DNA of 64,000 nucleotides from Patescibacteria group bacterium (lineage in GTDB: Bacteria; Patescibacteriota; Microgenomatia; 0-14-0-10-38-17), in the NCBI GenBank assembly GCA_050953885.1, contig JBMNNJ010000001.1:9137-73136 (forward strand), written 5' to 3'. Below, one piece after another: positions 3,801 through 47,210 of this stretch (within the stretch, counting starts at the first letter, position 1; the number at the start of each line of letters is the position of its first letter). Below the pieces are notes generated by a model. That model made no database searches. It saw only the letters and a list, made by a program, of their open reading frames with translations, and was not told the DNA's origin. The translations under genes and the position numbers were made by a program.

Positions 3801-3950
3801 TGGGTAATAAGAAAGCGCAAAGCGTAAAACGCAAAGATTAGAACCTAATTCAAAATTTAAAAGTCAAAAGTACAAGTTAAAATTAAAAAGTAGAGCAAAA
3901 AAAACTTTTAACTTTGATCCGCCGGCTGGCGGATTGACTTTTACCTTTTG
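3801..3950. repeat. AAAAG-heptamer palindromic element between secD and secF
   Basis: gcgcaaagcgtaaaacgcaaag...caaaatttaaaagtcaaaagtacaagttaaaatt...ccgccggctggcgg...ttttgcgc. Confidence 0.55.
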
Positions 3951-3967
3951 AATTATTTTTGCGCCAG

Positions 3968-4017
3968 TCATTCGCTCATTCGTGTCCATTCGTTTATCAT
4001 TCGTGTTAATTCGTGTC
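3968..4017. repeat. phased ACGAAT tandem repeat block (copy 1, inverted orientation: CATTCG units)
   Basis: tcattcgctcattcgtgtccattcgtttatcattcgtgttaattcgtgtc is the reverse complement of gacacgaatt aacacgaatg ataaacgaatg gacacgaatg agcgaatga. Confidence 0.6.
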
Positions 4018-4915
4018 TTTTAACAATTTAATAATAAAATTTTTTATGAATTTTCTTAAATACCGTTATATCAGTTTTATTATTTCCGGACTTTTGCTGG
4101 GTTTGGCGGTTTTTTCGCTGGCCCGCTTTGGTTTGGTTTTGTCGCTTGATTTTACCGGCGGTTCGCTTTTGGAGGTAAAGCTTGGTCAGGAGGCTTCCAG
4201 CGGCGATCTTTGGACAGCCTTTGAGGAAAATAAAGTGGCTGTTTCTCAAATTCAAGAAACGCAGGAAGGCAGTTTCTTGATTCGCTTTGAGAACGATAAG
4301 AGTCAGGAGGAAATTTTGGCAGTTTTGACAGAAAACTTTGGGTCGGTGGAGAAATTACGCTTTGAAACAGTGAGCCCGACGATGGGGGGAGAATTATTTA
4401 CTAAGGCTTTAACCGCCTTGGTGGTGGCGGTGGCGCTGATTTTGCTTTACCTAAGTTGGCGATTCAAAAGCTATCAATTTGGTGTTTTTGCGATTTTGGC
4501 AATGCTTCATGACGCCCTTATTTTAACTGGTGTTTTTTCTCTTTTGGGAAAAGCCAGGGAAGTGGGAGTGGACGCGCTTTTCATCACCGCTCTTTTAACC
4601 ACCCTTTCCTCGTCGGTTCATGATACGGTGGTTACCTTTGATTACATTCGCAAGCAAACCGGACGCTTTTTTAGCGCGGATAATCTTGAAGAAATTGCCA
4701 ATAAGGCCTTAAACCAAACAATAGTACGCAATATTAACAATTCTCTAACGATTATTTTTATGTTAACGGCGGCGCTTCTTTTAGGCGGGGAGACGATTCG
4801 TTGGTTTGTGGTGGCTTTATTGGTGGGAACAATTTTAGGAACTTATTCTTCTACCTTTTTGGCGGTGCCGCTTTTGGTTACCTTTGAAGAGTGGCGGCGG
4901 AGGAGAAAAAAATAG
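4013..4915 (+). CDS. secF: protein translocase subunit SecF (true start may be M at 4046)
   Basis: SecF-like TM topology and the conserved LDFTGGS motif; located downstream of secD. Confidence 0.85.
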   Translation: MSFNNLIIKFFMNFLKYRYISFIISGLLLGLAVFSLARFGLVLSLDFTGGSLLEVKLGQEASSGDLWTAFEENKVAVSQIQETQEGSFLIRFENDKSQEEILAVLTENFGSVEKLRFETVSPTMGGELFTKALTALVVAVALILLYLSWRFKSYQFGVFAILAMLHDALILTGVFSLLGKAREVGVDALFITALLTTLSSSVHDTVVTFDYIRKQTGRFFSADNLEEIANKALNQTIVRNINNSLTIIFMLTAALLLGGETIRWFVVALLVGTILGTYSSTFLAVPLLVTFEEWRRRRKK

Positions 4916-5007: not shown

Positions 5008-6414
5008 TTATTTAGTTTTAATTTTTTCTATTTCCCGCAAGAGAGCGTCGCGATCGTTTTCCAGTTTGCCTTCTTCTACTTGGGCAAAAATTTCCTTAAG
5101 TACTTGGCCTACTTTTGGCCCGGGGGGAATATTTAGGCTTTCCATCACATCGTGTCCGTCTATTTTTAAATCGGTAACGCTAAATGGTTGTTTTTGAACT
5201 TCAATGAGGCGTTTTTTAAATTCTTCGGTGCGCCAGGAAGTTTTTTTCGCCCCGCTGCCCAGCCGGTCGCCGGTGCGCAGGGCCAGCATATCCTCCACAT
5301 TTTCCGGACCTACGCGACGCAGGAAACGCTTTAGGGCCTTATCGGTTTGATTTTCCGAAACCGAGAATTGATGCCAACGAACGAGACGATAAAGACGGTC
5401 TAAATCTTTATTGGAAAGGCGCAAGCGTTGGCCAATTTGGCGGGCCATTTTGGCGCCCACCACCTCGTGGTTATAAAAAGTGCGTTCGCCATTAATTTCG
5501 GCCACTACTTGGGGCTTACCGATATCATGAAGAAGGGTGGCCAGGCGGACAATCGGATCACTTGAGGGGCAGAACTGAACGGCAAGAAGAGAGTGGCGCC
5601 AAACATCCCAAAGATGGTGGCCCTTTTGTGTTAAATTATAGGCAGGAAGAAGTTCCGGAAAAATGTGTTCTAAAAGGCCGGTTTCGCGTAGAAGATTAAA
5701 GCCTTTTTCTACCTGATTGCTGGTTAAAATTTTAAAAATTTCTTCGCGAATTCGTTCCCCGGAGACTTTTTTAATTAGGACGGCGTTTTTTTTAATCGCC
5801 TGAAGGGTTTTCTTCTCGATTTCAAAGTCTAAAACGGTGGCTAAGCGAATTGCCCGTAAAAGCCGTAAAGCGTCTTCGGCAAAGCGTTCGTCGGGATTGC
5901 CGACGGCGCGAATCAGTTTTTTTTCTAAATCTTCTTGACCGCCAAAAGGGTCAATTAATTCCCACCCGGCGCTAAGATCCTGCTTTTTGGTTTGGGGGTT
6001 AATCTTGGGGCCTAAAGCCATGGCGTTAATGGTAAAGTCGCGGCGTGATAAATCTTCTTTAATGGTTTTTCCCCAAAAAATCTGGTCCGGATGGCGAAAA
6101 TCACCATAGCCTTTTTCTGAGCGGTAGGTGGTAATTTCAATGGGAGTAAATTTCGGGTGGGGGATTTTGACCGTGCCGTATTGATTGTCATAAAAACTTT
6201 CTTCAAAAAAACTTTGAACTTTTTCCGGTGGGGCGTTGGTGGCAAAATCCCAGTTGGTAATTTCTTTTTTTCCCAAGAGGATGTCGCGCACCGCGCCGCC
6301 AACCAAATAAATTTCCCCACCCGCGGCAATGAATTTTTCAAAAATAGCGTTGATTTCTTGGGGTAAGGGATAAGAAGACGGTTTATTTTCCCCAATGGTG
6401 TTATTATTTACCAT
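5008..6414 (-). CDS. cca: CCA-adding enzyme / tRNA nucleotidyltransferase with HD domain
   Basis: PolyA-polymerase family head (GGAVRD), HD domain (HDIGK), tRNA-binding C-terminus. Confidence 0.8.
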   Translation of the reverse strand: MVNNNTIGENKPSSYPLPQEINAIFEKFIAAGGEIYLVGGAVRDILLGKKEITNWDFATNAPPEKVQSFFEESFYDNQYGTVKIPHPKFTPIEITTYRSEKGYGDFRHPDQIFWGKTIKEDLSRRDFTINAMALGPKINPQTKKQDLSAGWELIDPFGGQEDLEKKLIRAVGNPDERFAEDALRLLRAIRLATVLDFEIEKKTLQAIKKNAVLIKKVSGERIREEIFKILTSNQVEKGFNLLRETGLLEHIFPELLPAYNLTQKGHHLWDVWRHSLLAVQFCPSSDPIVRLATLLHDIGKPQVVAEINGERTFYNHEVVGAKMARQIGQRLRLSNKDLDRLYRLVRWHQFSVSENQTDKALKRFLRRVGPENVEDMLALRTGDRLGSGAKKTSWRTEEFKKRLIEVQKQPFSVTDLKIDGHDVMESLNIPPGPKVGQVLKEIFAQVEEGKLENDRDALLREIEKIKTK

Positions 6415-6574
6415 GACTTTATTATAGCAAACAGGAAGCGTTGGTTCTTCTTGCCGCTTTTTGATTAGTAAATAACCCTATAGCTTGATAATTTCTCTTC
6501 ATTATCATTTATAACGGGAAAGCGACGCTTTTAAACTTTCGGCTTGGAAAAAATAAAGCACGGGGTAATTATTT

Positions 6575-7423
6575 TTAAGAGAGAAGCGTTTGGGCTTCTT
6601 CAAAAATAGCGGCGGCTTTTTTAGGGGGGATTTTGGCCTTGCGGGTAAAGTTAGGCCATTTTTTAAGCAGGTCTTTAACCAAGATAATTTTTTCCTCAAA
6701 GCACTGGCGGGCAAGATCGTCATCAAGAGAAGGGAGAATGGTTATCGGATAAAGATTTTGGCTTTCAATTAAATACTCCAAGCCGCGTTCTTGGGGATAG
6801 CGCCAGCCTAAAAGTTCAAGATGATAGCATTGGGCAAATTTTTGACTTCGGTGGGTAAATTTAGCATCAGTTACTAAGATAAAACTAATTTCTTTTTGGA
6901 AAAAAGCGGGGGTTTTAAAAAGTTCTCCTTTTTTAAGATCAAGAAATTTAGCGTAATTTTCCAAGATAATTTCGCTGGGGATTTTTTGTTTTGCCAAGGC
7001 GTGACGGAATTTGCACTCGCCGATGAATAATTCTTTTTCTTTCTGAGCCAAAAAATCAATTTCGTAGGTAAGGCAGTAACCTTTAAGATGCTGGTTGAGA
7101 AAAACCTCCCAGCCTTGATTTTCAAAAAGAGCGCCCACGTATTTTTCAAAAGGAAAACCGGTGGGGCCAAGACGCTGGATAGCTTTTTTAAGAGAAAACC
7201 GGATCCCCGCCTTGGGTTCATTTTCGTGAAGACGTTTTAGGACTTCTTCGTGAATGAGGGCGGTGGAGATGCCCGGGTAAACCAAGAGGCTAATCTCGTC
7301 GGCAATTTTTGTGGCTAATTTTTTAGAGGCGCCAGCCCGCCGCGCGCTTGAAAAAACCTTTTTCCAAGAAAAAGGTTCTTTTTGTCCCGCAAGATTAATA
7401 ACATAAAGAGGCTCTTCGACCAT
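6575..7423 (-). CDS. ATP-cone domain protein fused to Mrr-like restriction-endonuclease catalytic domain
   Basis: N-terminal ATP-cone (YVINLAGQKEPFSWKKV...); C-terminal D...E.K motif (EIDFLAQKEKELFIGECKFR) typical of Mrr_cat. Confidence 0.55.
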   Translation of the reverse strand: MVEEPLYVINLAGQKEPFSWKKVFSSARRAGASKKLATKIADEISLLVYPGISTALIHEEVLKRLHENEPKAGIRFSLKKAIQRLGPTGFPFEKYVGALFENQGWEVFLNQHLKGYCLTYEIDFLAQKEKELFIGECKFRHALAKQKIPSEIILENYAKFLDLKKGELFKTPAFFQKEISFILVTDAKFTHRSQKFAQCYHLELLGWRYPQERGLEYLIESQNLYPITILPSLDDDLARQCFEEKIILVKDLLKKWPNFTRKAKIPPKKAAAIFEEAQTLLS

Positions 7424-7488
7424 CTTTTTAAGTATAGCAGGTTTTAAATAATAGTGATTTTTGAAAAAATAGTATAATATCAGTTATT

Positions 7489-8016
7489 ATGGGAAAAGAA
7501 AGAGAGAACTATAGCAGTGAGGATATTGATCGGAAAGGCACTAATTGCTCTTCTTTTTGTGCCTCTTTTTTGAGGTTGGGGGAAAATTATGGTCGGAAGA
7601 TAGAAGTGGAAGAGTGGCTTTCAAGATTAGTGGAGTCGTCAACAGCAATTTATGAAAATCTTGATGAATCTTTGGCGGCGCCAATTAGTGATATTATTTA
7701 TCACTTTGTAGATGAAGGAAAAGAAAAAGAGGCTTTTGCCCAATTCCCCTGCCTCTTATCACCCGAAGAAAGCCAATATTTTGCCGTGGAGTCATTATTT
7801 TTTATAGGCTTTGAAGTCGGTAGCCAAAAATTTAAGAATTTATCGGAGGAGGAGTCTTTTAGAAGAACCTTTACAATTCTTAAAAAGATACGTTTTTTAA
7901 ATGACCAAGGCGAGGAATTTTCGTCAAAAGTATTTAGCGAAGGAGTGTTTTTGGGTAAATTATTTAAGGGCAGGAACACAATATTCTTAAAAACATATCC
8001 CTTTTGTCTCAATTAA
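7489..8016 (+). CDS. hypothetical protein
   Basis: ORF only; no recognisable motif. Confidence 0.3.
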   Translation: MGKERENYSSEDIDRKGTNCSSFCASFLRLGENYGRKIEVEEWLSRLVESSTAIYENLDESLAAPISDIIYHFVDEGKEKEAFAQFPCLLSPEESQYFAVESLFFIGFEVGSQKFKNLSEEESFRRTFTILKKIRFLNDQGEEFSSKVFSEGVFLGKLFKGRNTIFLKTYPFCLN

Positions 8017-8044
8017 ATTAAGTTTTTTCCGAGGTTCGAACCTT
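8014..8044. repeat. short CCGAGGTTCGAACC palindromic hairpin (related to the CCGAGG hairpin family) between convergent genes
   Basis: ccgaggttcgaaccttgg palindrome; shares CCGAGGTTCGAA core with elements at 9261, 27843 and 34973. Confidence 0.5.
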
Positions 8045-8105
8045 GGGAAAAGGAAAGAAGTAAGCTTGGTAAAAAACCAAAAGCTTTGCTAAAATTTTTG
8101 GCTGA

Positions 8106-9236
8106 TTAATTTCCGAGCGCTTTTTCTGCCCGCCAAGAGGCTTGCGATTTTTCCCTGATGGTTAACCCGCTGGTTTGTCTGATGGCTTTTTCAATAATAG
8201 CCAAGCTTTCGTCATAGACTTTTCGGTTTACTGGATAAGGAGTGCCGTCTTTACCGCCGTGAGCAAAAGTGTAGCGAGCCGGGTCTTCATAAGACGGTTT
8301 GGCTGCGTAAATAACTTCGGCCACCAAGCTAATGGCTCTGATTGTTTTGGGGCCAACTCCTTTAGTCATTAAAAGTTTTTCAAAATTGTCCGGTCGGTTA
8401 ATTACCGCCTGATTCAAGGCTTTTTTAAACTGGGGGCTTTCAAAATTAAGAAATTCCCTTTCCACCGGATGATGAGAAAACTCCCCGCCGGGTAGCTTAA
8501 GGATTTTGAATTGCCAATCATCTTGAGTACTTTTTAAGAGCGCTAAATCGCGCCATAAGGTTTTGCTTGATTGCACCAATTCTACTCCCACTTCCCTGTT
8601 TTTTTGGCTTTTAGGCGCGGTTAGATCCAAAACATTTTTAAGAAAAACTTGGGAAGCAATACCGCAATGGGGAGCATCAATAAAGTCTTTTTTTTCATCT
8701 CCCCACCAGTGGTATCGCCTCGCTTTCCCTTTTTCAATATTCATTCCTTGTTGGATAACCGTCCACTGGCCATTTTTAACAAAAATAAAATTATGGTGGT
8801 AAATTTGAAAACTATCTTGCACCAGACTGCTGTCTACTTTGGCCGCCGCTCGCGAGGAATAAATTAATCTTTTTACCTTTTCCTCGTCTAATGATAGCCG
8901 CCAGCCCCAGTTTTTAATTTCGTCAGGAGTTTTTCTTGAAGTTTTTCCCTTGCCGCCGCAGATAAAAATTCCCAGATCTTTTTCCAGGCCTCGAAAAGCA
9001 AATTTCAGTGCCCCCAAGGTGGTGGTCGTTAGGCCGGAGGCGTTCCAATCAAAAGCCAAAACACAGCCCAAAGATTGGAACCAAACCGGATCGGCCAGCC
9101 TTTTTAAAAATTCCTCCGGCCCAAATTCCCTTATTACGGCAATGCCGATCGCTCGGGCTAATCGGACCATGCGGTTAAAAAGCCAGCGAGGACAACGGCC
9201 CCAATCAAGAGTAAAATCAGCCACGCCGGTTCTCAT
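8106..9236 (-). CDS. DUF763 domain protein
   Basis: N-terminus MRTGVADFTLDWGRCPRWLFNRMVRLARAI matches the conserved DUF763 start; length about 376 aa. Confidence 0.6.
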   Translation of the reverse strand: MRTGVADFTLDWGRCPRWLFNRMVRLARAIGIAVIREFGPEEFLKRLADPVWFQSLGCVLAFDWNASGLTTTTLGALKFAFRGLEKDLGIFICGGKGKTSRKTPDEIKNWGWRLSLDEEKVKRLIYSSRAAAKVDSSLVQDSFQIYHHNFIFVKNGQWTVIQQGMNIEKGKARRYHWWGDEKKDFIDAPHCGIASQVFLKNVLDLTAPKSQKNREVGVELVQSSKTLWRDLALLKSTQDDWQFKILKLPGGEFSHHPVEREFLNFESPQFKKALNQAVINRPDNFEKLLMTKGVGPKTIRAISLVAEVIYAAKPSYEDPARYTFAHGGKDGTPYPVNRKVYDESLAIIEKAIRQTSGLTIREKSQASWRAEKALGN

Positions 9237-9260
9237 AAGTTCATTTTAGCAAAAATTGCT

Positions 9261-9320
9261 TTTCCCGAGGTTCGAAGCTAATCAACCCCCGGAGTTAACT
9301 AGCTTCAAACCTCGGGAAAA
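9261..9320. repeat. 60-bp hairpin repeat element (CCGAGG family, copy A1)
   Basis: 20-bp inverted arms tttcccgaggttcgaagcta / tagcttcaaacctcgggaaa around loop atcaacccccggagttaac; sits in the divergent region between DUF763 and recJ. Confidence 0.7.
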
Positions 9321-9369
9321 GAGGCGTTTTGGTTTCTGGTGGTGGCAAGAGAAAGGTTTTTCTTCTATA

Positions 9370-11070
9370 ATGATTCTTATGGAGGAAAAGTGGCAGATTA
9401 AGGGAGAGATTAAAAGTAAAGAAAAAAAAGAACGGCGCGAGGAAATTATTAATCTTTTGCTTTTGAACCGGGGCATTTCCCCCGTTGAAAAGGAGATTTT
9501 TTTTAATCCTCCTTCGCCAAAGTCGCTGACGGCTGAAGAAGTAGGTCTTTCGCCCGCCTCGCTTTCGCAGGCGAGGAGAAAAATTTTGGCGGCCAAGGAG
9601 AAAAGGCAAAAGATTTTAATTTTTGGCGATTATGATGTGGACGGCATTTGCGGGACGGCGGTTTTGTGGGAAGCTCTTTGGCAGAAGGGCTTTGATGTTT
9701 TGCCCTATCTTCCCAAGAGAAGTGAAGGCTATGGCGTTAGCGCTAAAACAATCGCCCGCCTTAAAAAAGAAAATCCCGGTCTAGGCTTGGTAATCACCGT
9801 TGATAATGGCATTGTTGCCCGGGAAGAAATTGAAGGAATTTTAAAGCAGGGTGTTGAGGTGGTGGTGAGCGACCACCATTTAAAGCAGGAAAAGAAAACA
9901 CCTAAGGCAACTTTAGTTTGGAGCCCGAAAATTTGCGGGGCGGCGGTGGCTTATTTTTTAGCGGCCGAATTTAGTGATGACTCCGATGGTCTTGATTTGG
10001 TGGGGCTGGCAACGGCGGCGGACTTGATGCCTCAGACAATGGTTAATCGGATTTTTTTAAAAGCCGGCCTGCGCTCTTTGCGGCAAACTTCTCGGCCGGG
10101 CCTTTTGGCGTTATTTAATGAGGCAGGGATTCAAAAAGATTTGCTTGACTCTTACCACTTGGGTTATATTATCTGCCCGCGTCTTAACGCTACCGGTCGG
10201 CTTGATGACGCGATGGACTCGTTGCGGCTTTTGTGCACCCGCGATACCCAGCGGGCTGCTGGCTTGGCTAAAAGATTAGGGCAAGAGAACCAAGCGCGGC
10301 AAAACCTTACCCAAAAAGCGCTGGCGCAAGCAGAAGCGGAAATTTTAAAAAATCCTGAGGAGCAAAAACTGCTTTTTGTTTATTCTCCCGATTTTCATCC
10401 GGGAATTATTGGTTTGGTGGCGGGAAAATTAGCGGATAAGTTTTGCCGGCCGGCGGTGGTGGCGACGGCGGTGGACGGGATAATTAAGGCCTCTTGCCGT
10501 TCTCCGGAGGGTTTTAATATCTTGTTGGCGCTTAAAAAAATTGAAGACTATTTTTTTGATTTGGGCGGTCATCCCCGCGCCGCCGGCTTAAGTTTTTCTA
10601 AAAAAAATCTTTCCAAGGTTCAAAAAGCTTTAACACAAATTGGGCGGGAAATTAATCCGCGGCTTTTGGTTCCCAAGCTTAACATTGATGCCCAAGTGCG
10701 TTTTTCCGATTTAAATTTTACTCTTTGGGAACTTTTGGAAAAATTTTCTCCCTTTGGTTTGGGTAATCCCCAACCGCTTTTTTCTACCCCGGATGTTATA
10801 ATTGGAGGAGTAAGGAGACTGGGTCAAAACGGGGCGCATTTGCGTTTGATTTTGGATGATTTGTCCACCCGGCGGGAGGAAAAAGCGGTGGCTCTCTGGC
10901 CGGCGCAGGAGTCGGAGGCGGTTTTTGACGGGGTGGGCTTTAATATGGGGAATTTGGACTTAAAAGCCGGCGACCGGGTGGCTGTTGCCTACCACCTCTC
11001 CCTTAATGAATGGCAAGGGCGAAGAAATTTAGAATTAAAATTAGTCTCCCTTAAGAAAAAGAATGATTAA
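9370..11070 (+). CDS. recJ: single-stranded-DNA-specific exonuclease RecJ (start adjusted to internal Met; the 9256 start overlaps the repeat)
   Basis: DHH motifs (ILIFGDYDVDGICG, VSDHH), DHHA1 and C-terminal OB domains. Confidence 0.85.
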   Translation: MILMEEKWQIKGEIKSKEKKERREEIINLLLLNRGISPVEKEIFFNPPSPKSLTAEEVGLSPASLSQARRKILAAKEKRQKILIFGDYDVDGICGTAVLWEALWQKGFDVLPYLPKRSEGYGVSAKTIARLKKENPGLGLVITVDNGIVAREEIEGILKQGVEVVVSDHHLKQEKKTPKATLVWSPKICGAAVAYFLAAEFSDDSDGLDLVGLATAADLMPQTMVNRIFLKAGLRSLRQTSRPGLLALFNEAGIQKDLLDSYHLGYIICPRLNATGRLDDAMDSLRLLCTRDTQRAAGLAKRLGQENQARQNLTQKALAQAEAEILKNPEEQKLLFVYSPDFHPGIIGLVAGKLADKFCRPAVVATAVDGIIKASCRSPEGFNILLALKKIEDYFFDLGGHPRAAGLSFSKKNLSKVQKALTQIGREINPRLLVPKLNIDAQVRFSDLNFTLWELLEKFSPFGLGNPQPLFSTPDVIIGGVRRLGQNGAHLRLILDDLSTRREEKAVALWPAQESEAVFDGVGFNMGNLDLKAGDRVAVAYHLSLNEWQGRRNLELKLVSLKKKND

Positions 11071-12565: not shown

Positions 12566-12576
12566 AAAGATTAAAA

Positions 12577-12626
12577 GACGCGAATGGACACGAATAGGAA
12601 ACGAATAGACGCGAATGAGCGAATAA
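12577..12626. repeat. phased ACGAAT tandem repeat block (copy 2)
   Basis: gacgcgaatg gacacgaatag gaaacgaatag acgcgaatga gcgaata: 10-11-bp units; followed by hairpin ggggcgtaTTGCatacgcccg at 12632-12652. Confidence 0.6.
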
Positions 12627-12674: not shown

Positions 12675-14045
12675 ATGAAGTCTCTATTTTCCGACCGCAC
12701 TCTTATTGCCGAGACGCCCCAAAAGGTTGGTCAAAAAGTGAGGCTTTTTGGCTGGGTTAACAGCGTTCGTGATCATGGAAAACTGGTTTTTGTGGATCTT
12801 CGCGATCAAAGTGGCGTTGTCCAAATCGTTGGCGTCAAAGAAGTTTTAGGCAGGGTTAAAAATGAATTTGTGGTTTGTCTTGAGGGGGAGGTAAAAAAGC
12901 GGCCGGAAAAGTTAGTTAATCCTAAAATTAGCACTGGCGGGGTGGAAGTGGCGGCCAAAAGTTTGGAAATTTTATCATCAGCCAAAGAATTACCTTTTGA
13001 TATTTACGGTACGGGACGAAAAATAAACGAGGATTTACGCTTAAAATATCGCTATCTTGACCTGCGCCGGCCACGATTACGAAATAATTTATTTCTCCGC
13101 CACCAACTTTTACAAACTTTTCGCCAAACATTGGTGAAGCATGGTTTTTGGGAAGTAGAGACGCCTAATTTAAGCAAATCTACCCCCGAGGGAGCGCGGG
13201 ATTTTTTAGTGCCCTCTCGACTTCAGCCGGGAAAATTTTATGCCCTGCCCCAAAGCCCCCAACAGTACAAGCAACTTTTAATGGTGGCCGGTTTGGAGCG
13301 TTATTTTCAAATTGCCGCCTGTTTTCGTGATGAAGATTTGCGGGCTGATCGCCAGCTTGAGTTTAAGCAAGTTGATTTGGAAATGTCGTTTGTTGATAGG
13401 GAAGCGGTTTTGGCGGAAGTGGAAGAAGTAATGATTGAGGTAATGAAGGCTCTTGGGAAGCCAATTTCAAAAATCCCCTTTCCCCGCTTAACTTATAAAG
13501 AAGCGCTGGAGAAGTATCATTCTGATAAGCCCGATTTACGGTCAAAAAAAGATGAGAAAAAATTTGCCTTTGCCTGGGTGATTGACTTTCCGCTTTTTGA
13601 AAAAACACCCCAGCGGACAATTGCCCCGGTACATCACCCTTTTACCAGCCCTAATCCTGAAGATTTGCCGCTTTTGGAAAAAAGCCCTTTAAAAGTGCGT
13701 TCCTGGCAATATGATTTAGTTTGTAACGGGCAGGAAGTGGGGGGAGGGAGCATCAGGATCACTGATCCCAAGATTCAGGAAAAAGTTTTTACGATTCTGG
13801 GCCACTCTAAAGAAGAAATTAGGCAAAAATTTGGCCATTTACTAACCGCTTTTGAATATGGCGTGCCGCCTGAAGGAGGGATTGCTTTGGGCTTTGATCG
13901 CTTGGCGGCAATTCTTTCCGGTGAGGAGAGCATTCGCGAGGTGATTGCTTTTCCGGTTAATACCGCTGGTAAAACGGCGGTAATGGACGCTCCCTCCACG
14001 GTTGCCGAAGAACAGCTGAAGGAGTTGGGGATAAAAATAAAATAA
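12675..14045 (+). CDS. aspS: aspartyl-tRNA synthetase (short type)
   Basis: N-terminal OB anticodon-binding domain; class II motifs (FRDEDLRADRQLEFKQVDLEMSF; GGGSIRI; GLGFDRL). Confidence 0.9.
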   Translation: MKSLFSDRTLIAETPQKVGQKVRLFGWVNSVRDHGKLVFVDLRDQSGVVQIVGVKEVLGRVKNEFVVCLEGEVKKRPEKLVNPKISTGGVEVAAKSLEILSSAKELPFDIYGTGRKINEDLRLKYRYLDLRRPRLRNNLFLRHQLLQTFRQTLVKHGFWEVETPNLSKSTPEGARDFLVPSRLQPGKFYALPQSPQQYKQLLMVAGLERYFQIAACFRDEDLRADRQLEFKQVDLEMSFVDREAVLAEVEEVMIEVMKALGKPISKIPFPRLTYKEALEKYHSDKPDLRSKKDEKKFAFAWVIDFPLFEKTPQRTIAPVHHPFTSPNPEDLPLLEKSPLKVRSWQYDLVCNGQEVGGGSIRITDPKIQEKVFTILGHSKEEIRQKFGHLLTAFEYGVPPEGGIALGFDRLAAILSGEESIREVIAFPVNTAGKTAVMDAPSTVAEEQLKELGIKIK

Positions 14046-14390
14046 AAGTCAAAATTCAAAATTAAAAATTCAAAAGTCAAAAGGCAAAAGGCAAAAAGTT
14101 AGCAACTCGTAATTATCTCCTGTCGGAAGACAGCGGACTGTCCGTTATTGTCATTCTGACGAAAGTCAGAATCTGCTTTTGGCAGGTATTAAGACAGATC
14201 CTGATTTCCATCAGGATGACGAATTGTACCCATTATACATTACGAGTTACACATTACATATTACGGATTGCTGATTTTTCATTTTGCTCCGCCAGCAGGC
14301 GGACAAGTCAAAAGTTAAAAGTTTCTGTTTTACTTTTAAATTTTAACTTGTACTTTTGACTTTTAAATTTTGAATTTTTACTTTATTTGG
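14046..14390. repeat. long composite palindromic intergenic element built from (A/C/G)AAAAG-type heptamers, with nested hairpin modules
   Basis: Left arm aaaagtcaaaattcaaaa...ggcaaaaag (14046-14098) complementary to right arm cttttgacttttaaattttgaattttt (14330-14385); internal hairpins tctgacgaaagtcaga, gatcctgatttccatcaggatg, ccgccagcaggcgg. Confidence 0.65.
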
Positions 14391-16357: not shown

Positions 16358-16359
16358 GA

Positions 16360-16565
16360 AAAAAATTCAAAATTCAAAAGGCAAAAGTCATAAATTAAAA
16401 CTCAAAACGCAAATGGCAAATGGCAAAACTACATGGCAAATGTTAAAACTTTTTAAAACTTAAAGTTGTTTTTTAGTTTTGAGTTTTAACATGTAGTTTT
16501 ACGTTTTGCGTTTTGAGATTTGAGTTTATTTATTATCTTTAAGTTTTGATTTAGGCTTTGATTTT
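16360..16565. repeat. AAAAG-heptamer palindromic intergenic element
   Basis: ctcaaaacgcaaatggcaaa...aaactacatg mirrored by catgtagttttacgttttgcgttttgag; lies between divergent genes. Confidence 0.65.
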
Positions 16566-16622
16566 TGTACTTTGCATTGCCTTCTCTTGAGTATAGCACT
16601 GCCAAATGGTAAAATTCAAACT

Positions 16623-21712: not shown

Positions 21713-21752
21713 CTACTACACACCCGATGTGATTTACCCTTTGCACATCGGG
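21713..21752. repeat. CACCCGATGTG hairpin repeat (copy 1, includes 19-bp half-site ctactacacacccgatgtg)
   Basis: cccgatgtg-atttaccctttg-cacatcggg; 21713-21731 is the exact reverse complement of 26421-26439. Confidence 0.65.
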
Positions 21753-21856
21753 ATAAATAGGAGAATCATTTTTTAACCAGAGATTTATTTTTAACTAAGC
21801 CAATTATCAGAAAGAGCTGGAGAAGATTAAACATTTAACCTGGGAAAACTGATTTT

Positions 21857-21890
21857 GCCGATGTGCCATATCTGTTGCATATCGGGTGCG
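21857..21890. repeat. CACCCGATGTG hairpin repeat (degenerate copy 2)
   Basis: gccgatgtgcc-atatctgtt-gcatatcgggtgcg. Confidence 0.5.
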
Positions 21891-21963: not shown

Positions 21964-23037
21964 TTAGATTTTTGTTAGTTCTCTTAAAAATCCTTCGAAT
22001 TGATCAGTTTGAAGGTCTTTGAGTTGTATTCGTGCAATTTTTCCGAATTGCTCGCCTCTGAAGGATACTCTTTCAAATTTGAAGGGCACCTTACTTAATA
22101 CCTTTTCAACGCCTTCTTTGTTTTTACTTGTTACCCAAATTTGAAAACCTCCACCTTCTGCGTCAGGATTTAACGGCAAGTTAATTGAAACTTTGTCATT
22201 AAAGGAAGTAACTGCATAAAAGTTAAGATACTTGGGAGATTTTGCAGATGAAATATTTGGGTAATTAGTCTGGTTACTGTTAATCTTATTCATTAAATCT
22301 AATAATTCAATAACTCGTTTTTCTTCAGGTCTTCCTCTGTAATAACTTAAAAATTCGTCGTCGGTTGGAACTATTTTTGAAGGTGTTGACTTACCGATGT
22401 CTTTTTTAATTTCGGCTCCATATAGCTTAGGAATTAGGATTTCAAAATTCTGATGTTTGTAAAATTCCAATTCAACTGCATAAATTGTAAACTCGCTATT
22501 ATTATTTAAAAAAACAATTAAATCTTTTAATTGAAGAGGGAGATGATCCATTAGGACCACAAACTTAAAGTTACCGTCATTCAAATTTCTTCTGATATTT
22601 TCCAAAAGAATATCGATTTCTTCTTCTGGAATATTAAAAAATTCATTTAGCCTTTGATTTAAAGTTTTGTTAAAATCCTTATTGATGTGTATATTAATTT
22701 GTTCAATAAAATCGGCAAAATCTCGATAGTTTGACCATAACGAAGCACCATAATCCAAAACTTGAGCAACCACAGTTCTTTTATCCGGGTTTTTATAAAG
22801 TTTGGTTTCAACAAGATAAATTTCGCCTTCTTTATCGACCCCTAGGGCATCAATCGGCCCACTGGCTGTATTAAATTCTCGAGCCAGAATCAAAAGCCGA
22901 ATATCTTCTTTAATATCATAAAGAGGAATACTTTCCGGATTATTGTAGATATATTGTTGAAGATGATCTTCTAGCTCGAAGTTACTTTTGTCTATTTTGA
23001 CTGCGTTTTTGCCGTTTCTTGAGATGATAATTGCCAT
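21964..23037 (-). CDS. PD-(D/E)xK nuclease-family protein (NucS/DUF91-like N-terminal domain) with unknown C-terminal domain
   Basis: Motif GPIDALGVDKEGEIYLVETK (D-x(n)-E-x-K) near the N-terminus; AT-rich island; flanked by hairpin repeats on both sides. Confidence 0.45.
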   Translation of the reverse strand: MAIIISRNGKNAVKIDKSNFELEDHLQQYIYNNPESIPLYDIKEDIRLLILAREFNTASGPIDALGVDKEGEIYLVETKLYKNPDKRTVVAQVLDYGASLWSNYRDFADFIEQINIHINKDFNKTLNQRLNEFFNIPEEEIDILLENIRRNLNDGNFKFVVLMDHLPLQLKDLIVFLNNNSEFTIYAVELEFYKHQNFEILIPKLYGAEIKKDIGKSTPSKIVPTDDEFLSYYRGRPEEKRVIELLDLMNKINSNQTNYPNISSAKSPKYLNFYAVTSFNDKVSINLPLNPDAEGGGFQIWVTSKNKEGVEKVLSKVPFKFERVSFRGEQFGKIARIQLKDLQTDQFEGFLRELTKI

Positions 23038-23301
23038 TTTCCCTCCAATTTTTTAATTGCCGGAGGGGATTAACTACAAAAGCTCCCCGTCAGCTGATGG
23101 TTCTTACGGAATCCACCCGCCAATCTTTCGATTGGTAACCTGCAGAAGATAACACTGGCGAAAAGCTTTCGCCTCTTCTGCAGGATTTTCTTGCCATGCC
23201 CAAAGGCTTGCGCCTCTGAGTTTAGACAATATTATTGTTAAGGTGATTATATAAAATTAGGGGTAGCTTTTCAAGTCTTCGTAATGTTCAGTTAACAGTA
23301 A

Positions 23302-23345
23302 TTACGCACCCGATGTGATTTACCCCTTGCACATCGGGTGCGTAA
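23302..23345. repeat. CACCCGATGTG hairpin repeat (copy 3, perfect 16-bp stem)
   Basis: ttacgcacccgatgtg-atttaccccttg-cacatcgggtgcgtaa. Confidence 0.7.
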
Positions 23346-26479: not shown

Positions 26480-27592
26480 TTAATTTTGGTGATGTGCCAA
26501 GACATTGTATCCACTCCAAGGGCCTAGTTTTACCGAGACATCATCAAGGATAATCGGTTGTACATAACGTATGTTATCATCAATCTCTGGTAATTGCATT
26601 TTCAGATATTGGTAGGGTATTTGATAGTCTAAGGATGAGTGTTCCCGGACATTGTTGTAGTAATAAATGTAACCCAGGGCCTCATTCAAGAGATCTTTTT
26701 TGCTCTTAATCTGTAGGACCCTGGGAATGTAGAACTCTTCGTCATCGGTTCTATGGCTTCTTTCCAAATGAGCATTCTCCTCAGGATGACCTTTGTGGTT
26801 CTGGATTAATCTACAGCCAAAACCCCTGATCAGTTTTCTTAACTCTTTGACCTTCAACCAGGATCTACCCCCAAATTCCTCACCATTATCAACAGTAAAG
26901 GCAATCTCTGATTTAACCCCATGAGACCTTAACCAGGAAATAGTCCAAAGGTAAAAACACAAACCATTAGTCCAAGATTTTTCCTTGGAATAAGCAATTA
27001 GTTTAAACCTAGAGTTAACATCCAGGGCTCCCCATTGATAGTTGGGAATATCATATTGGTTAAGATGAATAATTTGCTTTTTAGTCAGGGCTTTCTGATC
27101 CCTAATGAATTTGATATCCATTTGGACAATCTCAAAAGGTTTGGCTGAATACCAGTCAACAAACTCCCTTGGTTGTTTTCTTCTCTTGTTTGATTTTAGT
27201 TTGTAAGTAAGCCTGTCTTTATTCCTCCTTAGAATGTGCCTGATTGTTCCTGGAGGAACAAGAATCCCTTCATGTTTCTCAAGGTAGCGTGATAATCTTT
27301 TTGGCCCCAGGTGGGTTTTGTTCTTGGCCTTAATGACTTTACCTTCTGTCTTGGCTGGTGTCTTGTTGGGCTGGTGTTTTGGTATCTTGGGTCTGTCTTT
27401 AAGATTGCCCTCTTTGCTTTTTGCCAAGATGTCATAAACCACTGTCCTGTTGACCCTAAAAACCCTGGCGGTATCAGCAATGTTGTGGCCATTAGTCTTT
27501 AGATACTCAATCACTGTTTGTCTGGCTGCTTCTGGATTAATCTTTCTTAATTCCTTGTAGTCTATCCGGATTCCATGGATTCCAGGACTCAT
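26480..27592 (-). CDS. DDE transposase (N-terminal HTH + rve integrase core), IS481-like
   Basis: HTH (NIADTARVFRVNRTVVYDIL); DDE residues in QMDIKFI, FTVDNGEEFGG, HPEENAHLERSHRTDDEEFY; 100% identical to the first about 367 aa of the ORF at 42099. Confidence 0.8.
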   Translation of the reverse strand: MSPGIHGIRIDYKELRKINPEAARQTVIEYLKTNGHNIADTARVFRVNRTVVYDILAKSKEGNLKDRPKIPKHQPNKTPAKTEGKVIKAKNKTHLGPKRLSRYLEKHEGILVPPGTIRHILRRNKDRLTYKLKSNKRRKQPREFVDWYSAKPFEIVQMDIKFIRDQKALTKKQIIHLNQYDIPNYQWGALDVNSRFKLIAYSKEKSWTNGLCFYLWTISWLRSHGVKSEIAFTVDNGEEFGGRSWLKVKELRKLIRGFGCRLIQNHKGHPEENAHLERSHRTDDEEFYIPRVLQIKSKKDLLNEALGYIYYYNNVREHSSLDYQIPYQYLKMQLPEIDDNIRYVQPIILDDVSVKLGPWSGYNVLAHHQN

Positions 27593-27716
27593 GCTTTTTC
27601 ACCCCCTTTACTACACTCTCAAAATTAACACCCACCAATTTTAACACTCTTCTTACATATTCCTCATACCCAAACCTCATGAAGTGTATAGCATGTCCTG
27701 GACACCGCACATTTTT
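26483..27716 (-). mobile_element. IS element copy 1 (about 1.23 kb, IS481-like, single transposase ORF); boundaries approximate
   Basis: Sequence essentially identical to 41975-43203 in inverted orientation; identity decays at about 26489 and about 27714. Confidence 0.8.
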
Positions 27717-27756: not shown

Positions 27757-27867
27757 ATGCCTATTTATAAGCTTAAGGATATTCCCAAGTTGGAAAGGCC
27801 AAGAGAAAAACTAGTCAAGTATGGTCCCCAGTTTTTGGTAAACTCCGAGCTTTTAGAGAGCTTCTAA
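27757..27867 (+). pseudogene. RadC/UPF0758 N-terminal fragment (36 codons then stop)
   Basis: MPIYKLKDIPKLERPREKLVKYGPQFLVNSELLESF* matches the conserved RadC N-terminus (ERPREKL..G...LSD.ELLAI); truncated where the CCGAGG hairpin repeat begins. Confidence 0.45.
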
Positions 27868-27944
27868 CCCCCGGCGTTAAATAGCTTCAAGCCTCGGAAG
27901 AAAATATTATCTTGGCCATATATGGTGTTAAAATTAGTTTATGG
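27843..27944. repeat. CCGAGG hairpin repeat copy A2 (degenerate left arm) plus conserved 40-bp tail with promoter-like TGTTAAAAT
   Basis: cttctaacccccggcgttaaatagcttcaagcctcggaag followed by aaaatattatcttggccatatatggtgttaaaattagtt; the tail is about 85% identical to 35031-35073. Confidence 0.6.
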
Positions 27945-28613: not shown

Positions 28614-29150
28614 TTGAGTATGAATGAATATAGCCCTGAAGATAATGTTCAAATTGAGAAAGCCATTAAGTTTCTTGTTGAGAGGATAAGTCATCACGGG
28701 AAAAATCCTAAACCAGTTATTTTGCATAGTATAAGAGTTGCCTTTAGCCTAGATGTGCTTGGATACGGTAGGGACGTGGTTATTGCCGCTCTTCTTCATG
28801 ACATTATCGAAGATTCAGAGACGACTGCTGAAGAAATAAAAGAGCTTTTCGGTAAAAAGATAAGTAAGCTTGTTGTCAGTTGTACCTTTGATAAAACAAT
28901 AGATGATGAAACAGAAATGTATAAAAAAAATTTTGAGAAAGCGGCAAAAACCAGCAAAGAAGCACTTGCTATAAGAGCAGCTGATTTACTAGATAATAGT
29001 AATTATTATCATTTAGTAAAAGATAAGCAACTATATCGAAGGCTTTTAAATAAGTTAGACTTTTTTTTGGTAGTTGCCAAGAAGATGATCTTTGGTGAAA
29101 AAATATACAAAGCCCTACTTAAGAAGAGAGGTGAGCTAGCCAATTTCTAA
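28614..29150 (+). CDS. standalone HD-domain protein, small alarmone hydrolase (SAH)/RelA-SpoT N-terminal HD-like
   Basis: H...HD motif (HSIRVAF...AALLHDIIEDS...KLVVSCT) aligns with the HD region of the relA/spoT product at 11063 (LLHDAVEDT...KLVDGVTK). Confidence 0.55.
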   Translation: MSMNEYSPEDNVQIEKAIKFLVERISHHGKNPKPVILHSIRVAFSLDVLGYGRDVVIAALLHDIIEDSETTAEEIKELFGKKISKLVVSCTFDKTIDDETEMYKKNFEKAAKTSKEALAIRAADLLDNSNYYHLVKDKQLYRRLLNKLDFFLVVAKKMIFGEKIYKALLKKRGELANF

Positions 29151-33204: not shown

Positions 33205-33330
33205 TTTTTGCTTTTGTTATCTTTTTGGGTAACTTAGCTTAATTATTATACAATGATTCCTATGGTGCCAATCCTTTTATGATGTTATAATTTTTGCTAT
33301 GGATGAGCATATTTTAAATGTCCAGTTGCG

Positions 33331-33392
33331 GCGATTCCTTTTCTCTAAACCTCTTTTCCTCGTCGCCTCCGCCTTTTGTTTTTAGCAGATCC
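33331..33392. repeat. left copy of an inverted-repeat pair of about 60 bp flanking gene 33441-34565
   Basis: tttctctaaacctcttttcctcgtcgcctccgcc...tttgtttttagcaga is the near reverse complement of 34625-34690. Confidence 0.6.
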
Positions 33393-33440: not shown

Positions 33441-34565
33441 TTATTCAAAACAAATATCTGGTTTATTTTCCATACGAATATATTGTTTGCTACCTCGTCT
33501 AACTTTATCAATATATAAATTACAATTTTCGTAAGTGCGATCTTCTTCTATACACTCACAAATTAATTTATCGTTGGTTTTATATGCAATTCGTTCAAAA
33601 CAAATATCTTTACTTGCTAATTTTGGGCGATATTTAGTTTCTGAAATATTTTGACAAATCGAGGGTTGACCCTTGTTATATGCAACGTGTGTGAAACAAA
33701 AATCTTTTGAATCTTTATCACTTATTTCATTACAATAAGATTGGTTTTGAGATGTAATTGCAATTTTTTTAATACACCAATCCGTCATATCCCGATCTTC
33801 TAAAGCCTTACACTGATTTATATCAGATTTGCCCATGGCAAAACATGCTGCCTTTAATAATGAATCTGAAATCTCTTGGCAAAATTTTTCATCTTGGCTA
33901 GACAAAGCTTTATTCGCAAGATCTATTTGTTTTGAATAAGAGCCGACCTGACTTGCTTTATTATTTTCCTCCCAAACTGGTCTTAACAGTAAAACCCCTG
34001 AAAGCAAGATATTAACAAGAAATGGCGAAATGACAGCGGCAATTATAACAAATAAAACCTTCTTCTTGTCGTATTTTTTTAGTTTCTTTAAAACCAGAAG
34101 TCCAATTAAGAAAATTATCACTAAAAAAATGAAAAGAGGTATTAAAGAAGTCCTATATTCTTCGTGGACGGTTCTTCCTTTAACTATGATATTTTTATCT
34201 CCCAATTTTCCGTTTAAAGTCCAGTTAATTTGTTCAACTTCTTCACCATTAACTGGTTCTCCGTGCCAAGGCCAAGAAACTTTTTTGTAAAAATAGGTTG
34301 TGTTGTGGTCTAATTCATAGCCGTCATCATTAAGTATTTTTTCTCCTTCTAAATAAAAAATTTGGGGGCATTCATTAGTAATTTCTAACGAACCACCACA
34401 AGCACCATATGTCTTGATTTTTAAACAATCAATATTATTTGGTTCTATAGAATCTATATAAGAAAAATATGGTGGGCAATATGCAAAAACTAAATTGGAA
34501 TTTCCCAGAAGAAATGTTACAAAAACTAGACTAAAAATTGGCAAAATTTTTTTGAGTGTCATCAT
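33441..34565 (-). CDS. secreted/membrane Cys-rich repeat protein
   Basis: Signal peptide, mid-protein TM; repeated C-x2-ISD/E-x-n-C-F modules (KFCQEISDSLLKAACF, YCNEISDKDSKDFCF, ICQNISETKY...ICF, ICECIEEDRTYENC). Confidence 0.4.
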   Translation of the reverse strand: MMTLKKILPIFSLVFVTFLLGNSNLVFAYCPPYFSYIDSIEPNNIDCLKIKTYGACGGSLEITNECPQIFYLEGEKILNDDGYELDHNTTYFYKKVSWPWHGEPVNGEEVEQINWTLNGKLGDKNIIVKGRTVHEEYRTSLIPLFIFLVIIFLIGLLVLKKLKKYDKKKVLFVIIAAVISPFLVNILLSGVLLLRPVWEENNKASQVGSYSKQIDLANKALSSQDEKFCQEISDSLLKAACFAMGKSDINQCKALEDRDMTDWCIKKIAITSQNQSYCNEISDKDSKDFCFTHVAYNKGQPSICQNISETKYRPKLASKDICFERIAYKTNDKLICECIEEDRTYENCNLYIDKVRRGSKQYIRMENKPDICFE

Positions 34566-34624: not shown

Positions 34625-34690
34625 CTCTGCTAAAAACAGAAAGCGGAGGTGGAGGCGGTGAGGAAAAGGGGTTTAGAAAAAAAGAATCGT
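34625..34690. repeat. right copy of the inverted-repeat pair flanking gene 33441-34565
   Basis: Reverse complement reads tttttctaaaccccttttcctcaccgcctccacctccgctttctgtttttagcaga. Confidence 0.6.
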
Positions 34691-34972
34691 CGTAGCCGCC
34701 GACGCCGTTATATTCTCCTTAAATATGAGACAGTCTTCTCTTTTCAAGCTCATCATATTAAGTGATAAAGAGGCTCTCTTAGCATGATAATAATTAATCT
34801 CTTACTTCTTTTTTCTACCATTGGCAAGTCTTTAGTCCTGTATTTAACCCATCCGGACACACTCTTTTCCTAAAACCGATTAAGGCTTTCAATATAACTT
34901 TCCTCATTTTTCCGGTATGGCCTGGCCACTCGGTGTCTTTTGGTAAATTCTAAAACAAAGCTATAGTGGTGC

Positions 34973-35073
34973 TTTCCCGAGGTTTGAAGCTATTTAACTC
35001 CGGGGGTTGATTAGCTTCAAACCTCGGGAAAAACATATCTTGGTCTTATATGGTGTTAAAATTAAGTTAAGTG
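34973..35073. repeat. CCGAGG hairpin repeat copy A3 (inverted orientation relative to A1) plus conserved promoter-like tail
   Basis: tttcccgaggtttgaagcta-tttaactccgggggttgat-tagcttcaaacctcgggaaa; the loop is the reverse complement of the A1 loop; the tail atatcttggtcttatatggtgttaaaattaagtt sits immediately upstream of xseA. Confidence 0.7.
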
Positions 35074-35101
35074 ATGGGATACAAATATAATATGGGACAA
35101 A

Positions 35102-41746: not shown

Positions 41747-41974
41747 TATTTTTCACCTCCTTTTGGGATAAACAGAAAGTTTGAAGATTGCACTAATTTG
41801 GTAAACCTTTATTTGGGCCAAAGCCTAAGAGAATTCCTAAAATGAAGAGTTAAAACCGGCGATTGAATTTTTGGGCATGGTTAGCAAGCGGTTGGGTTGT
41901 AGGGAGAAACGAAGTTTTCCTACTTGTGCGCTTCTTTAAATAAATTATAACTTAATTATTTTGAAAATCAAGAG

Positions 41975-43203: not shown

Positions 43204-43322
43204 GAAATTGTTTTCCCGTCCAATCATGGTATTTTTCCTCAACCATTTGGCGTTCTTTTTCAACTCGTTGGTGGCGTTTTTCTAATTCGGCAGGAATAAC
43301 TTTTTTATTTTTCTTTAAATAA
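42099..43322 (+). CDS. DDE transposase, copy 2 (the ORF reads through the IS end; the in-element protein ends near 43205)
   Basis: Identical to the 26480-27592 product for about 367 aa; the last about 40 codons lie outside the IS and overlap iscU. Confidence 0.75.
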   Translation: MSPGIHGIRIDYKELRKINPEAARQTVIEYLKTNGHNIADTARVFRVNRTVVYDILAKSKEGNLKDRPKIPKHQPNKTPAKTEGKVIKAKNKTHLGPKRLSRYLEKHEGILVPPGTIRHILRRNKDRLTYKLKSNKRRKQPREFVDWYSAKPFEIVQMDIKFIRDQKALTKKQIIHLNQYDIPNYQWGALDVNSRFKLIAYSKEKSWTNGLCFYLWTISWLRSHGVKSEIAFTVDNGEEFGGRSWLKVKELRKLIRGFGCRLIQNHKGHPEENAHLERSHRTDDEEFYIPRVLQIKSKKDLLNEALGYIYYYNNVREHSSLDYQIPYQYLKMQLPEIDDNIRYVQPIILDDVSVKLGPWSGYNVLAHHRNCFPVQSWYFSSTIWRSFSTRWWRFSNSAGITFLFFFK

Positions 43323-44755: not shown

Positions 44756-44756
44756 G

Positions 44757-47148: not shown

Positions 47149-47157
47149 AAAACGCGA

Positions 47158-47210
47158 ATCAACACGAATAAAAAACGAATAAACACGAATGAGCGAATGA
47201 TTAGCGCGAA
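47158..47210. repeat. phased ACGAAT tandem repeat block (copy 3)
   Basis: aacgcgaatcaacacgaataaaaaacgaataaacacgaatgagcgaatga. Confidence 0.6.

Follow-up and report, generated by a model that had tools for sequence, protein, structure and literature searches.

A palindromic repeat recurs between genes of a patescibacterial chromosome

We analyzed a 64,000-nucleotide stretch of contig JBMNNJ010000001.1 from a Patescibacteria group bacterium (hereafter the window) and characterized a palindromic element of about 60 bp that recurs in its intergenic spaces. The window is ordinary chromosome and encodes secDF, cca, recJ, relA/spoT, aminoacyl-tRNA synthetases, mur ligases, a nifU with a putative intein, iscS, tatD, ABC transporters, greA, ndk, femAB and ruvB; ruvC and ruvA are seen in precomputed Pfam calls for the same strain (L064; L numbers designate related sequences throughout). 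The first-pass annotation of this stretch had described a hairpin element at four places, one copy degenerate and one reduced to a short palindrome, and all four are recovered here:

8014-8044, no strand: A0, a short palindrome made of two outer ends only, TTCCGAGGTT-CG-AACCTTGGGAA
9261-9320, no strand: A1, an intact full copy, a 23-7-23 palindrome with its centre C-rich on the + strand (hidden Markov model (HMM) score 73 bits)
27843-27902, no strand: A3, a decayed copy (HMM score 30.5 bits)
34973-35033, no strand: A2, an intact full copy upstream of xseA, its centre reverse-complemented relative to A1 (HMM score 74 bits)

All copies are intergenic, and full and half forms are both present. 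Searched with an HMM built from full copies, the window yields these four matches and no others, and ~18 kb of extra flank from the same strain yields none, a density of 4 copies in ~82 kb. The 16-nt arm CCGAGGTTTGAAGCTA (≤3 mismatches) occurs six times in the window against 0.54 expected, a count reached in 0 of 100 shuffles. The description of a dispersed repeat in both orientations is borne out. A repeat search recovers the family as repeats D4, I2, I17 and I23; I2 pairs 70 nt at 9250-9319 with 34973-35042 at 91% complementarity, and I23 comprises 31-nt arms, 87% complementary, 1 nt apart. The terminal arms measure 23 nt and are 87-100% complementary. On the + strand the centre reads AACCCCCGGAGTT at 9283-9297 in A1 and AACTCCGGGGGTT at 34995-35009 in A2, its reverse complement, so that the second copy is indeed flipped; A3 reads as A1. 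The loop of about 20 nt assigned earlier is for the most part self-complementary, and the 23-7-23 layout leaves a true loop of 3-7 nt.

The four copies differ in setting and state of preservation. A1 lies between the divergent genes DUF763 (-) and recJ (+), and A2 has an orthologue in L026 at 98.9% identity. A3 retains the centre, the inner palindrome and the right arm, with a left arm ~70% degenerate and two substitutions in the outer motif; elsewhere (L004, L022, L029, L033, L057) only the half from 27861 rightward is present. A0 sits at the 3′ end of DUF763, where it forms the left border of an insertion or deletion of that gene, and it is decaying in strain L016; by its composition it is a centrally deleted copy.

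Across ~25 related metagenome contigs, the family follows the 23-7-23 layout TCCCGAGGTTYGAAGCTA-(ATC/TTT)AAC-CCCCGGA-GTT(AAA/GAT)-TAGCTTCRAACCTCGGGA, with the consensus TCCCGAGGTT[T/C]GAAGCTA-(ATC/TTT)AAC-CCCCGGA-GTT(AAA/GAT)-TAGCTTC[A/G]AACCTCGGGA. A 10-nt motif, TCC[C/G]G[A/G]GGTT, occurs three times per full copy (at the left end, at the centre and inverted at the right end), and an inner palindrome, (A/T)T(C/T)AAC...GTT(A/G)A(A/T), encloses the asymmetric 7-nt centre CCCCGGA, whose two orientations have only a short CCGG in common. The family further includes a core-only 10-7-10 form, CCTATTTAAC-CCCCGGA-GTTAAATAGG (L003 514-541; L019 1095-1113 and 254-271), a half form consisting of centre, inner palindrome and one outer arm, a hybrid form with outer arms of different types, A (TGAAGCTA) and B (CCTGCCTA), in L018/L037, L046 (6176-6233) and L059, and a nested form with a 16-bp palindrome, TCCGCCAGCTGGCGGA, in the element centre (L015, L022, L026). 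All four combinations of inner-arm alleles are present in the family.

In a pattern scan, true members numbered ~25 in metagenome contigs, at ~13 distinct loci, and only two in 185,579 reference genomes, with none in viral contigs. The source species is thus missing from the GTDB representatives in any assembled form that retains the repeat. Most of the metagenome contigs with the element come from few projects, of biogas or digester type where the record names tell. Among named homologues, those closest to the window's RecJ are from Candidatus Shapirobacteria (85% identity). The window shows synteny with contig L046 (GCA_018052565.1), and L004 (CAZAFQ010000078.1) is 92-93% identical to part of it. 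As judged from these records, the family is confined to a narrow Shapirobacteria-like clade of the candidate phyla radiation (CPR), from anaerobic digesters. Two database labels stand apart: L004 is filed as Saccharibacteria, though the window's closest named protein homologues are from Shapirobacteria, and its label is probably loose; L003 (DMDI01000052.1) is filed under Desulfotomaculum sp. UBA9916, yet corresponds to the array also found in metagenome contig L034.

Every copy in the window marks a breakpoint of strain variation

Comparison of related contigs shows that all four window copies fall on breakpoints of strain-level structural variation. Two of them enclose a single-gene module:

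8045-9260, - strand: DUF763 module of ~1.2 kb, with the gene at 8106-9236 (-), bracketed by A0 and A1

The window, L016, L031 and L040-45 carry the module; L009, L032 and L038 lack it, a single intact element joining 8043 to 9260 in these three. Its presence and absence are incongruent with local strain similarity: L009 and L031 share derived sites and differ in DUF763. The cca-recJ space as a whole is a small variable island (window 6414-9370, L046 6121-10000) that measures 46 nt in a distant relative, and it holds an AF1548-like gene, a 175-aa open reading frame (ORF) and DUF763 in the window lineage and ORFs of 72, 288 and 344 aa in the sister species.

The breakpoint at A3 lies inside the element. 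Left of 27861 the window has an insertion sequence (IS) and an LD-carboxypeptidase gene; at that place L004, L022, L029, L033 and L057 have an SNase gene and no left arm. Eight further contigs have an identical YjjX, and the four that reach far enough upstream (L049, L052, L053, L055) show the window arrangement. Upstream of xseA, L015 and L022 carry an acyltransferase-xseA operon without A2, and the window and L026 carry A2 with the adjoining tail described below. Two side observations concern the same region. One IS481-like copy lies ~130 bp left of A3 and is not at that position in L029 and L033. The HD-domain gene (28614-29150) downstream of yjjX is missing in L033 (28472-29152 versus L033 2287-2320) without involvement of the element; because this indel lacks the palindrome, not all regional variation is tied to it.

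Family members beyond the window show the same association. L018 and L037 have the element and its right (flippase) flank in common and differ in their left flanks, and one right arm with a restriction-modification flank is joined to four left contexts (L013, L019, L024, L030). The point at which L019 and L024 diverge falls precisely within the centre, which in L024 is a hybrid, AACTCC joined to CGGAGTT. Direct repeats of the core enclose a 110-aa ORF in L034/L003. The inner 19 nt are inverted between L027 and L034 at the same locus, and the segment between the arms has opposite orientations in L059 and L057; at the recJ locus, the orientation of the centre is constant in 10 strains. At both recJ and yjjX, sister lineages carry B-type arms in place of the A-type arms of the window lineage, which suggests that sequence may have been exchanged between copies, L046 and L059 not being known as one genome. 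Many of the metagenome contigs end within ~200 bp of a copy, where assemblers break and may mis-join, and we accordingly put most weight on arrangements that recur across several independent assemblies, together with forms (half, hybrid and nested) that no chimera could produce.

A foldback repeat that may serve as a recombination substrate

With about even confidence, we read the element as a non-coding, lineage-restricted foldback repeat present in few copies, one that offers recombination a portable substrate and resembles either a doublet of repetitive extragenic palindromic (REP) sequences, known as a REPIN, or a miniature inverted-repeat transposable element (MITE). It most likely falls within the familiar class of small, selfish repeats prone to recombination. 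Such a repeat would act at the DNA level, its copies serving as portable stretches of homology and as hairpin- or cruciform-prone fragile sites, the centre being the main seat of breakage and rejoining, of template switching or of ectopic recombination. Events of this kind could flip the centre, exchange halves among copies, remove one arm or the middle and allow nested insertion, and could lead to the gain or loss of genes that lie between copies or next to them. A trans-acting enzyme would be needed for the initial spread to unrelated intergenic sites, with an HUH/RAYT-like enzyme or a transposase as the obvious candidate. Both the type of breakage or exchange and the means of original spread are what we infer from the arrangements described above.

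Several observations weigh against this reading. No transposase, HUH enzyme or recombinase adjoins any copy in the 64-kb window and the ~18 kb of extra flank. Pfam searches of window ORFs of ≥110 aa (without a few, such as 60537-61587 and 62729-63391) and of 30 related-locus ORFs found no Y1_Tnp, recombinase or element-linked transposase, and neither PADLOC and NCBIfam searches of the ORFs of no known family nor precomputed Pfam calls for the extra flank found a recombinase or transposase; the sole transposase among the scanned window ORFs is an IS481-like gene (370-aa rve_3 protein) in two identical inverted copies at 26482-27714 and 41968-43209. Target-site duplication was likewise absent, the flanks of more than 10 copies having no common direct repeat; the flanking T-run and A-run are inverted, form part of the palindrome and vary in length. 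The comparisons yielded no clean empty site, the cca/AF1548 spacer of the window versus L046 and the distant orthologous regions being too diverged. The copy number is low (4 in ~82 kb, ~13 distinct loci), unlike that of classic REP families. The element is also better conserved between species than the adjacent spacer (L059 versus the window), and hybrids retain conserved blocks at their ends, in the inner arms and at the centre, a conservation that would fit protein recognition or function, or else concerted evolution. Half copies always retain the end in direct orientation with the centre (~7 independent loci), a regularity not expected of random breakage. Neighboring genes lean to nucleic-acid metabolism (RecJ, XseA, ITPase, SNase, restriction-modification, PD-(D/E)XK, NUDIX), a category picked once the data were known and subject to clear exceptions. 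Finally, some flank combinations found in a single contig, such as that of L030, could be assembly chimeras.

Candidate recombinase targets and protein-binding sites

An alternative that we consider unlikely would make the element the target of a trans-acting site-specific recombinase (Xer-like tyrosine) or HUH enzyme, with the inner palindrome and 7-nt centre as the core site and the outer arms as accessory binding sites. Recombination between copies would then integrate, excise and invert single-gene modules in a manner like that of pdif and integron systems, but dispersed in the chromosome. The 10-7-10 core also stands alone in L003 and L019, junctions and hybrids fall at the centre, the 110-aa ORF of L034/L003 lies between direct repeats of the core, and half copies keep a strict polarity, to which asymmetric sites such as shufflon sfx offer a parallel. 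Bracketing of DUF763 by A0 and A1 would be expected if a circle with a short palindrome had recombined with a full site, and the incongruent distribution of DUF763 points the same way. However, the ORFs scanned in the window, flanks and related loci include no recombinase gene, and junction positions are non-uniform: they fall in the outer arm for DUF763, at the outer end for L018 versus L037 and at the centre for the others. The stable centre orientation at recJ and the mere CCGG shared by the two orientations also speak against such an enzyme, and palindrome instability would suffice for central breaks without one. Slightly less likely still is the explicit form of this model, in which the copies are dispersed att-like sites of a trans-acting system (a tyrosine recombinase or HUH enzyme on the 10-7-10 core) that moves single-gene modules. 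If it is true, the DUF763, SNase, restriction-modification and small-ORF modules are integrated, excised and inverted in a cassette economy with neither a linked integrase nor an array.

More doubtful again is a protein-binding site of regulatory or architectural kind, either an upstream operator or activator site or a supercoil-absorbing cruciform between divergent promoters, that would control genes of DNA degradation and of nucleotide salvage and hygiene. The neighbors RecJ, XseA (with HRDC), the ITPase YjjX and DUF763 would suit this role, as would SNase nucleases, restriction-modification genes, a PD-(D/E)XK nuclease and NUDIX at other copies, and most copies lie in 5′ or divergent-promoter regions. 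The threefold 10-nt motif is also consistent with protein binding, and parts of the element resist decay: upstream of recJ, the sister species L046 retains one outer motif copy, AACCTCGGGAAAA, intact, the remainder having decayed, and in L059 the element is better preserved than the neighboring spacer. Against a binding site stand the varying distance to the -10 box (8, 28 and 45 nt), functionally unrelated neighbors (flippases, PMT_2, CofD, acyltransferase) and a functional category picked post hoc. The A3 outer motif carries two substitutions, half, deleted and hybrid forms persist at otherwise conserved promoters, and orthologous promoters work without the element in relatives. An operator of a DNA-repair regulon, a candidate prompted by RecJ, XseA, YjjX and DUF763, was rejected on the same unrelated neighbors and variable promoter spacing and is kept only within this minor rival.

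Predicted promoters beside the copies pre-date the element

Promoter-like motifs accompany three of the copies:

9243-9251, - strand: extended -10-like motif of DUF763, TGCTAAAAT, 6 nt before the ATG (9236-9234, - strand) and 8-9 nt from the left end of A1
9342-9371, + strand: promoter-like site of recJ, GTGGCA-18-TATAAT, 22 nt downstream of A1
27903-27940, + strand: tail at A3, the predicted native yjjX promoter, with TGTTAAAAT at 27926-27934, 6 nt and the ATG at 27941 (leaderless-type spacing)
35034-35066, + strand: tail copy at A2, a predicted duplicate of the yjjX promoter region, with TGTTAAAAT at 35054-35062

The first-pass annotation had joined the tail to the element as a small mobile promoter-bearing cassette and had placed the end of the tail 30-40 bp before both start codons; such a cassette would carry an outward-facing promoter (TGTTAAAAT), in the manner of Correia elements. 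At A2 TGTTAAAAT ends 39 nt before the xseA ATG at 35102; the stated spacing fails at A3, where 6 nt separate TGTTAAAAT from the yjjX ATG. A2 and A3 do have in common a stretch of ~70 bp at 83% identity, comprising the right half, the tail and TGTTAAAAT, and several other copies have -10-like boxes at distances of 8-30 nt. But only A2, A3 and their orthologues carry the tail, more than 10 other family members having unrelated flanks. The arrangement GTGnTAAAAT-N6-ATG is kept in yjjX orthologues at 93, 88, 78 and 69% identity, and in those at 69% (L060, L061) the promoter is still there although the element is not. Because these two relatives have GTGnTAAAAT-N6-ATG without the element, the tail is best read as the native yjjX promoter, upstream of which the element was inserted. 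In a relative with 54% RecJ identity, the cca-recJ gap measures 46 nt (L048 1487-1533) and likewise lacks the element. Absence upstream of yjjX in the 69% relatives and upstream of recJ in the 54% relative supports an element that was acquired, not ancestral.

The A2 tail is a secondary duplication of the yjjX promoter region, brought in upstream of xseA by a rearrangement that displaced the acyltransferase-xseA operon arrangement of L015 and L022. There a separate TATAAT at 35086-35091, 10 nt before the ATG, is likely to be the -10 box of xseA rather than the tail TGTTAAAAT; recJ, whose start is likely the ATG at 9379, has its box 7 nt upstream. A consensus promoter scan did not call TGTTAAAAT. 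Taken together, these comparisons show an element inserted upstream of predicted pre-existing promoters and without a predicted promoter of its own. Of the cassette proposed at first, the dispersed and acquired nature stands and the promoter does not: with the tail confined to yjjX and xseA, a yjjX promoter older than the element, and an xseA TGTTAAAAT lying 39 nt from its ATG where 6-10 nt is typical and TATAAT occupies the typical distance, a promoter-bearing element is very improbable. For annotation, the tail should be taken as an ordinary leaderless promoter, copied together with half the repeat.

In the window at large, Shine-Dalgarno motifs are almost absent. At 6-10 nt ahead of the ATG, numerous first genes carry a box resembling TATAAT or TAAAAT, frequently with TGn (examples at 6414-, 9236-, 9379+, 24042+, 26176-, 27941+, 39071- and 60357-), which suggests that leaderless mRNAs may be widespread in this organism.

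The element is not conserved as an RNA structure

Full copies fold into very stable predicted hairpins, at -34 to -48 kcal/mol (z -7 to -10) as RNA and -20 to -25 kcal/mol (z -6 to -9) as DNA, and the earlier description had named a regulatory RNA as one option. Half copies and A3, however, fold no better than shuffles. Six strains differ at 6 of ~60 element sites; the element is no less variable than its flanks, and these substitutions disrupt pairing without compensation (a G-to-C change in L031 and a G-to-A change in L009). On both strands the hairpin runs from TTTT at the 5′ side of the stem to AAAA at the 3′ side, and because it has T 5′ and A 3′ on either strand, it offers no terminator U-tract; a terminator scan made no call at any copy, and an intrinsic bidirectional terminator was rejected on these grounds. 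Rfam 15 gave no match at the gathering or E-value threshold, the sole hits being noise from miRNA-type hairpins that scored 13-30 bits where the cut-offs are 50-104 bits. One strand turns all three mismatches into G-U pairs and faces DUF763 at A1 and xseA at A2, but the G-U-favored strand is inconsistent across the family, and copies lie upstream of, or between, predicted divergent promoters, on both sides. These analyses show that the element is not conserved as an RNA structure, as far as predicted folding and strain variation reveal it, and a structured RNA, be it a 5′ untranslated-region hairpin, a small RNA, a processing site or a terminator, is scarcely credible.

Other repeats and notable features of the window

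The window holds several further repeats. The second dispersed family is the perfect 16-bp palindrome TCCGCCAGCTGGCGGA found in nested element copies, which stands at 3918-3933, 14288-14303 and 62656-62671 and also in L003, L015, L022, L026, L027, L032, L034 and L036, often within A-rich heptamer repeats. Intergenic A-rich arrays of 7-nt period (CAAAAGT, CAAAATT and complements), often in inverted pairs around gene ends, occur at 3835-3900, 14027-14110, 14317-14390, 16359-16580, 44743-44860, 46147-46260 and 62674-62760. A further family is built of ACGAATA/GCGAAT units, with members of ~54-74 nt that are 84-87% identical and lie in both orientations (3958-4031, 12571-12624, 47137-47210). Inverted repeats of ~65 bp (33329-33391, 34626-34692) bracket a 374-aa ORF (33441-34565, -) that matches no Pfam family and has only a weak PAP2/LpxF-like match; in L026 this unit, 280 bp, and A2 with its tail lie together between two copies of a ~42-nt xseA 5′ fragment, and the unit looks like another putative mobile or duplicated module.

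A LOOT RNA (Rfam RF03000, 65.5 bits) at 23096-23228 (-) lies directly upstream of a 357-aa gene at 21964-23037 (-) that matches a NucS-like nuclease and the PADLOC candidate-defence family PDC-S11. Three 36-nt hairpin repeats (TACACACCCGATGTG...CACATCGGG) flank this region at 21717-21752, 21851-21886 and 23303-23338. At 43199-44755 (-), a NifU-like protein is interrupted by a LAGLIDADG domain, which suggests that it holds an intein.

Significance and comparison with known systems

CPR/Patescibacteria have small genomes, in which repeats and mobile DNA are considered scarce. The family described here provides a sequence marker for where close Shapirobacteria-like strains gain, lose and reshuffle accessory genes, and it explains metagenome assembly breaks at these points. 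Should a dedicated enzyme act on the centre, it would constitute a new cassette-exchange system in an uncultured phylum. Full-text literature searches turned up no published REP- or MITE-type family from CPR bacteria, and the element is a small palindromic intergenic repeat of a general class that is apparently undescribed there.

Several specific identities were rejected. Integron attC sites are suggested by RYYYAAC/GTTRRRY-like boxes 7 nt apart at the centre, set against dispersed copies that lie mostly 5′ of genes and no integrase among the scanned ORFs. Compared by eye with the consensus, an Xer dif/pdif site (11-6-11, XerD arm TTATGTTAAAT-like) matches only in GTTAAAT, with an arm spacing of 7 nt, not 14. 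A likeness to the tRNA T-arm (GGTTCGAA) and to dif, attC, parS and Noc-site motifs was likewise checked by eye and dismissed. As for a parent IS, the only IS in the window is IS481-like, and its ends are unlike the arms.

Partial likenesses extend to systems of other kinds. The segment between the arms occurs in both orientations (A1/A2, L027/L034, L059/L057), and the centre is the site of a deletion (A0) and of an insertion (the nested 16-bp palindrome), as in palindrome flip-flop at chloroplast hairpins and in quasi-palindrome template switching in E. coli; those are single-locus events, whereas here a dispersed multi-copy family has halves exchanged between its members. Like the pdif modules of Acinetobacter plasmids and attC cassettes, the element is a short imperfect palindrome with an asymmetric centre that brackets strain-variable single-gene modules and exists in core-only and hybrid sites. 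Unlike them, it is dispersed in the chromosome rather than arrayed, has no linked intI or xer, and shows junctions that do not fall at one position.

Closest to it stand REP/REPIN elements and MITEs such as Correia elements. With MITEs (Correia/CREE, ERIC, RUP), the element shares a length of ~60 bp, terminal inverted repeats, an intergenic location near promoters in either orientation, and differences between strains; it departs from them in having no target-site duplication, where Correia elements duplicate TA, no internal promoter, and one whole palindrome in place of inverted repeats around a unique core. REP doublets, or REPINs, are mobilized by REP-associated tyrosine transposases (RAYTs) of the HUH type. 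The element differs from them in an arm that is not itself a small hairpin, in the lack of a GTAG-type 5′ tetranucleotide, in a copy number that seems low (tens, not hundreds), in its position mostly in 5′ or divergent-promoter regions rather than after genes, and in the absence of a RAYT gene (Y1/HUH) from the sequence searched (the window, related loci and ~18 kb of flanks). It resembles them in being short, extragenic and non-coding, with a full form that is an inverted doublet folding into a long hairpin, single half copies of defined polarity as remnants, no terminal target duplication, and copies that would act as recombination substrates.

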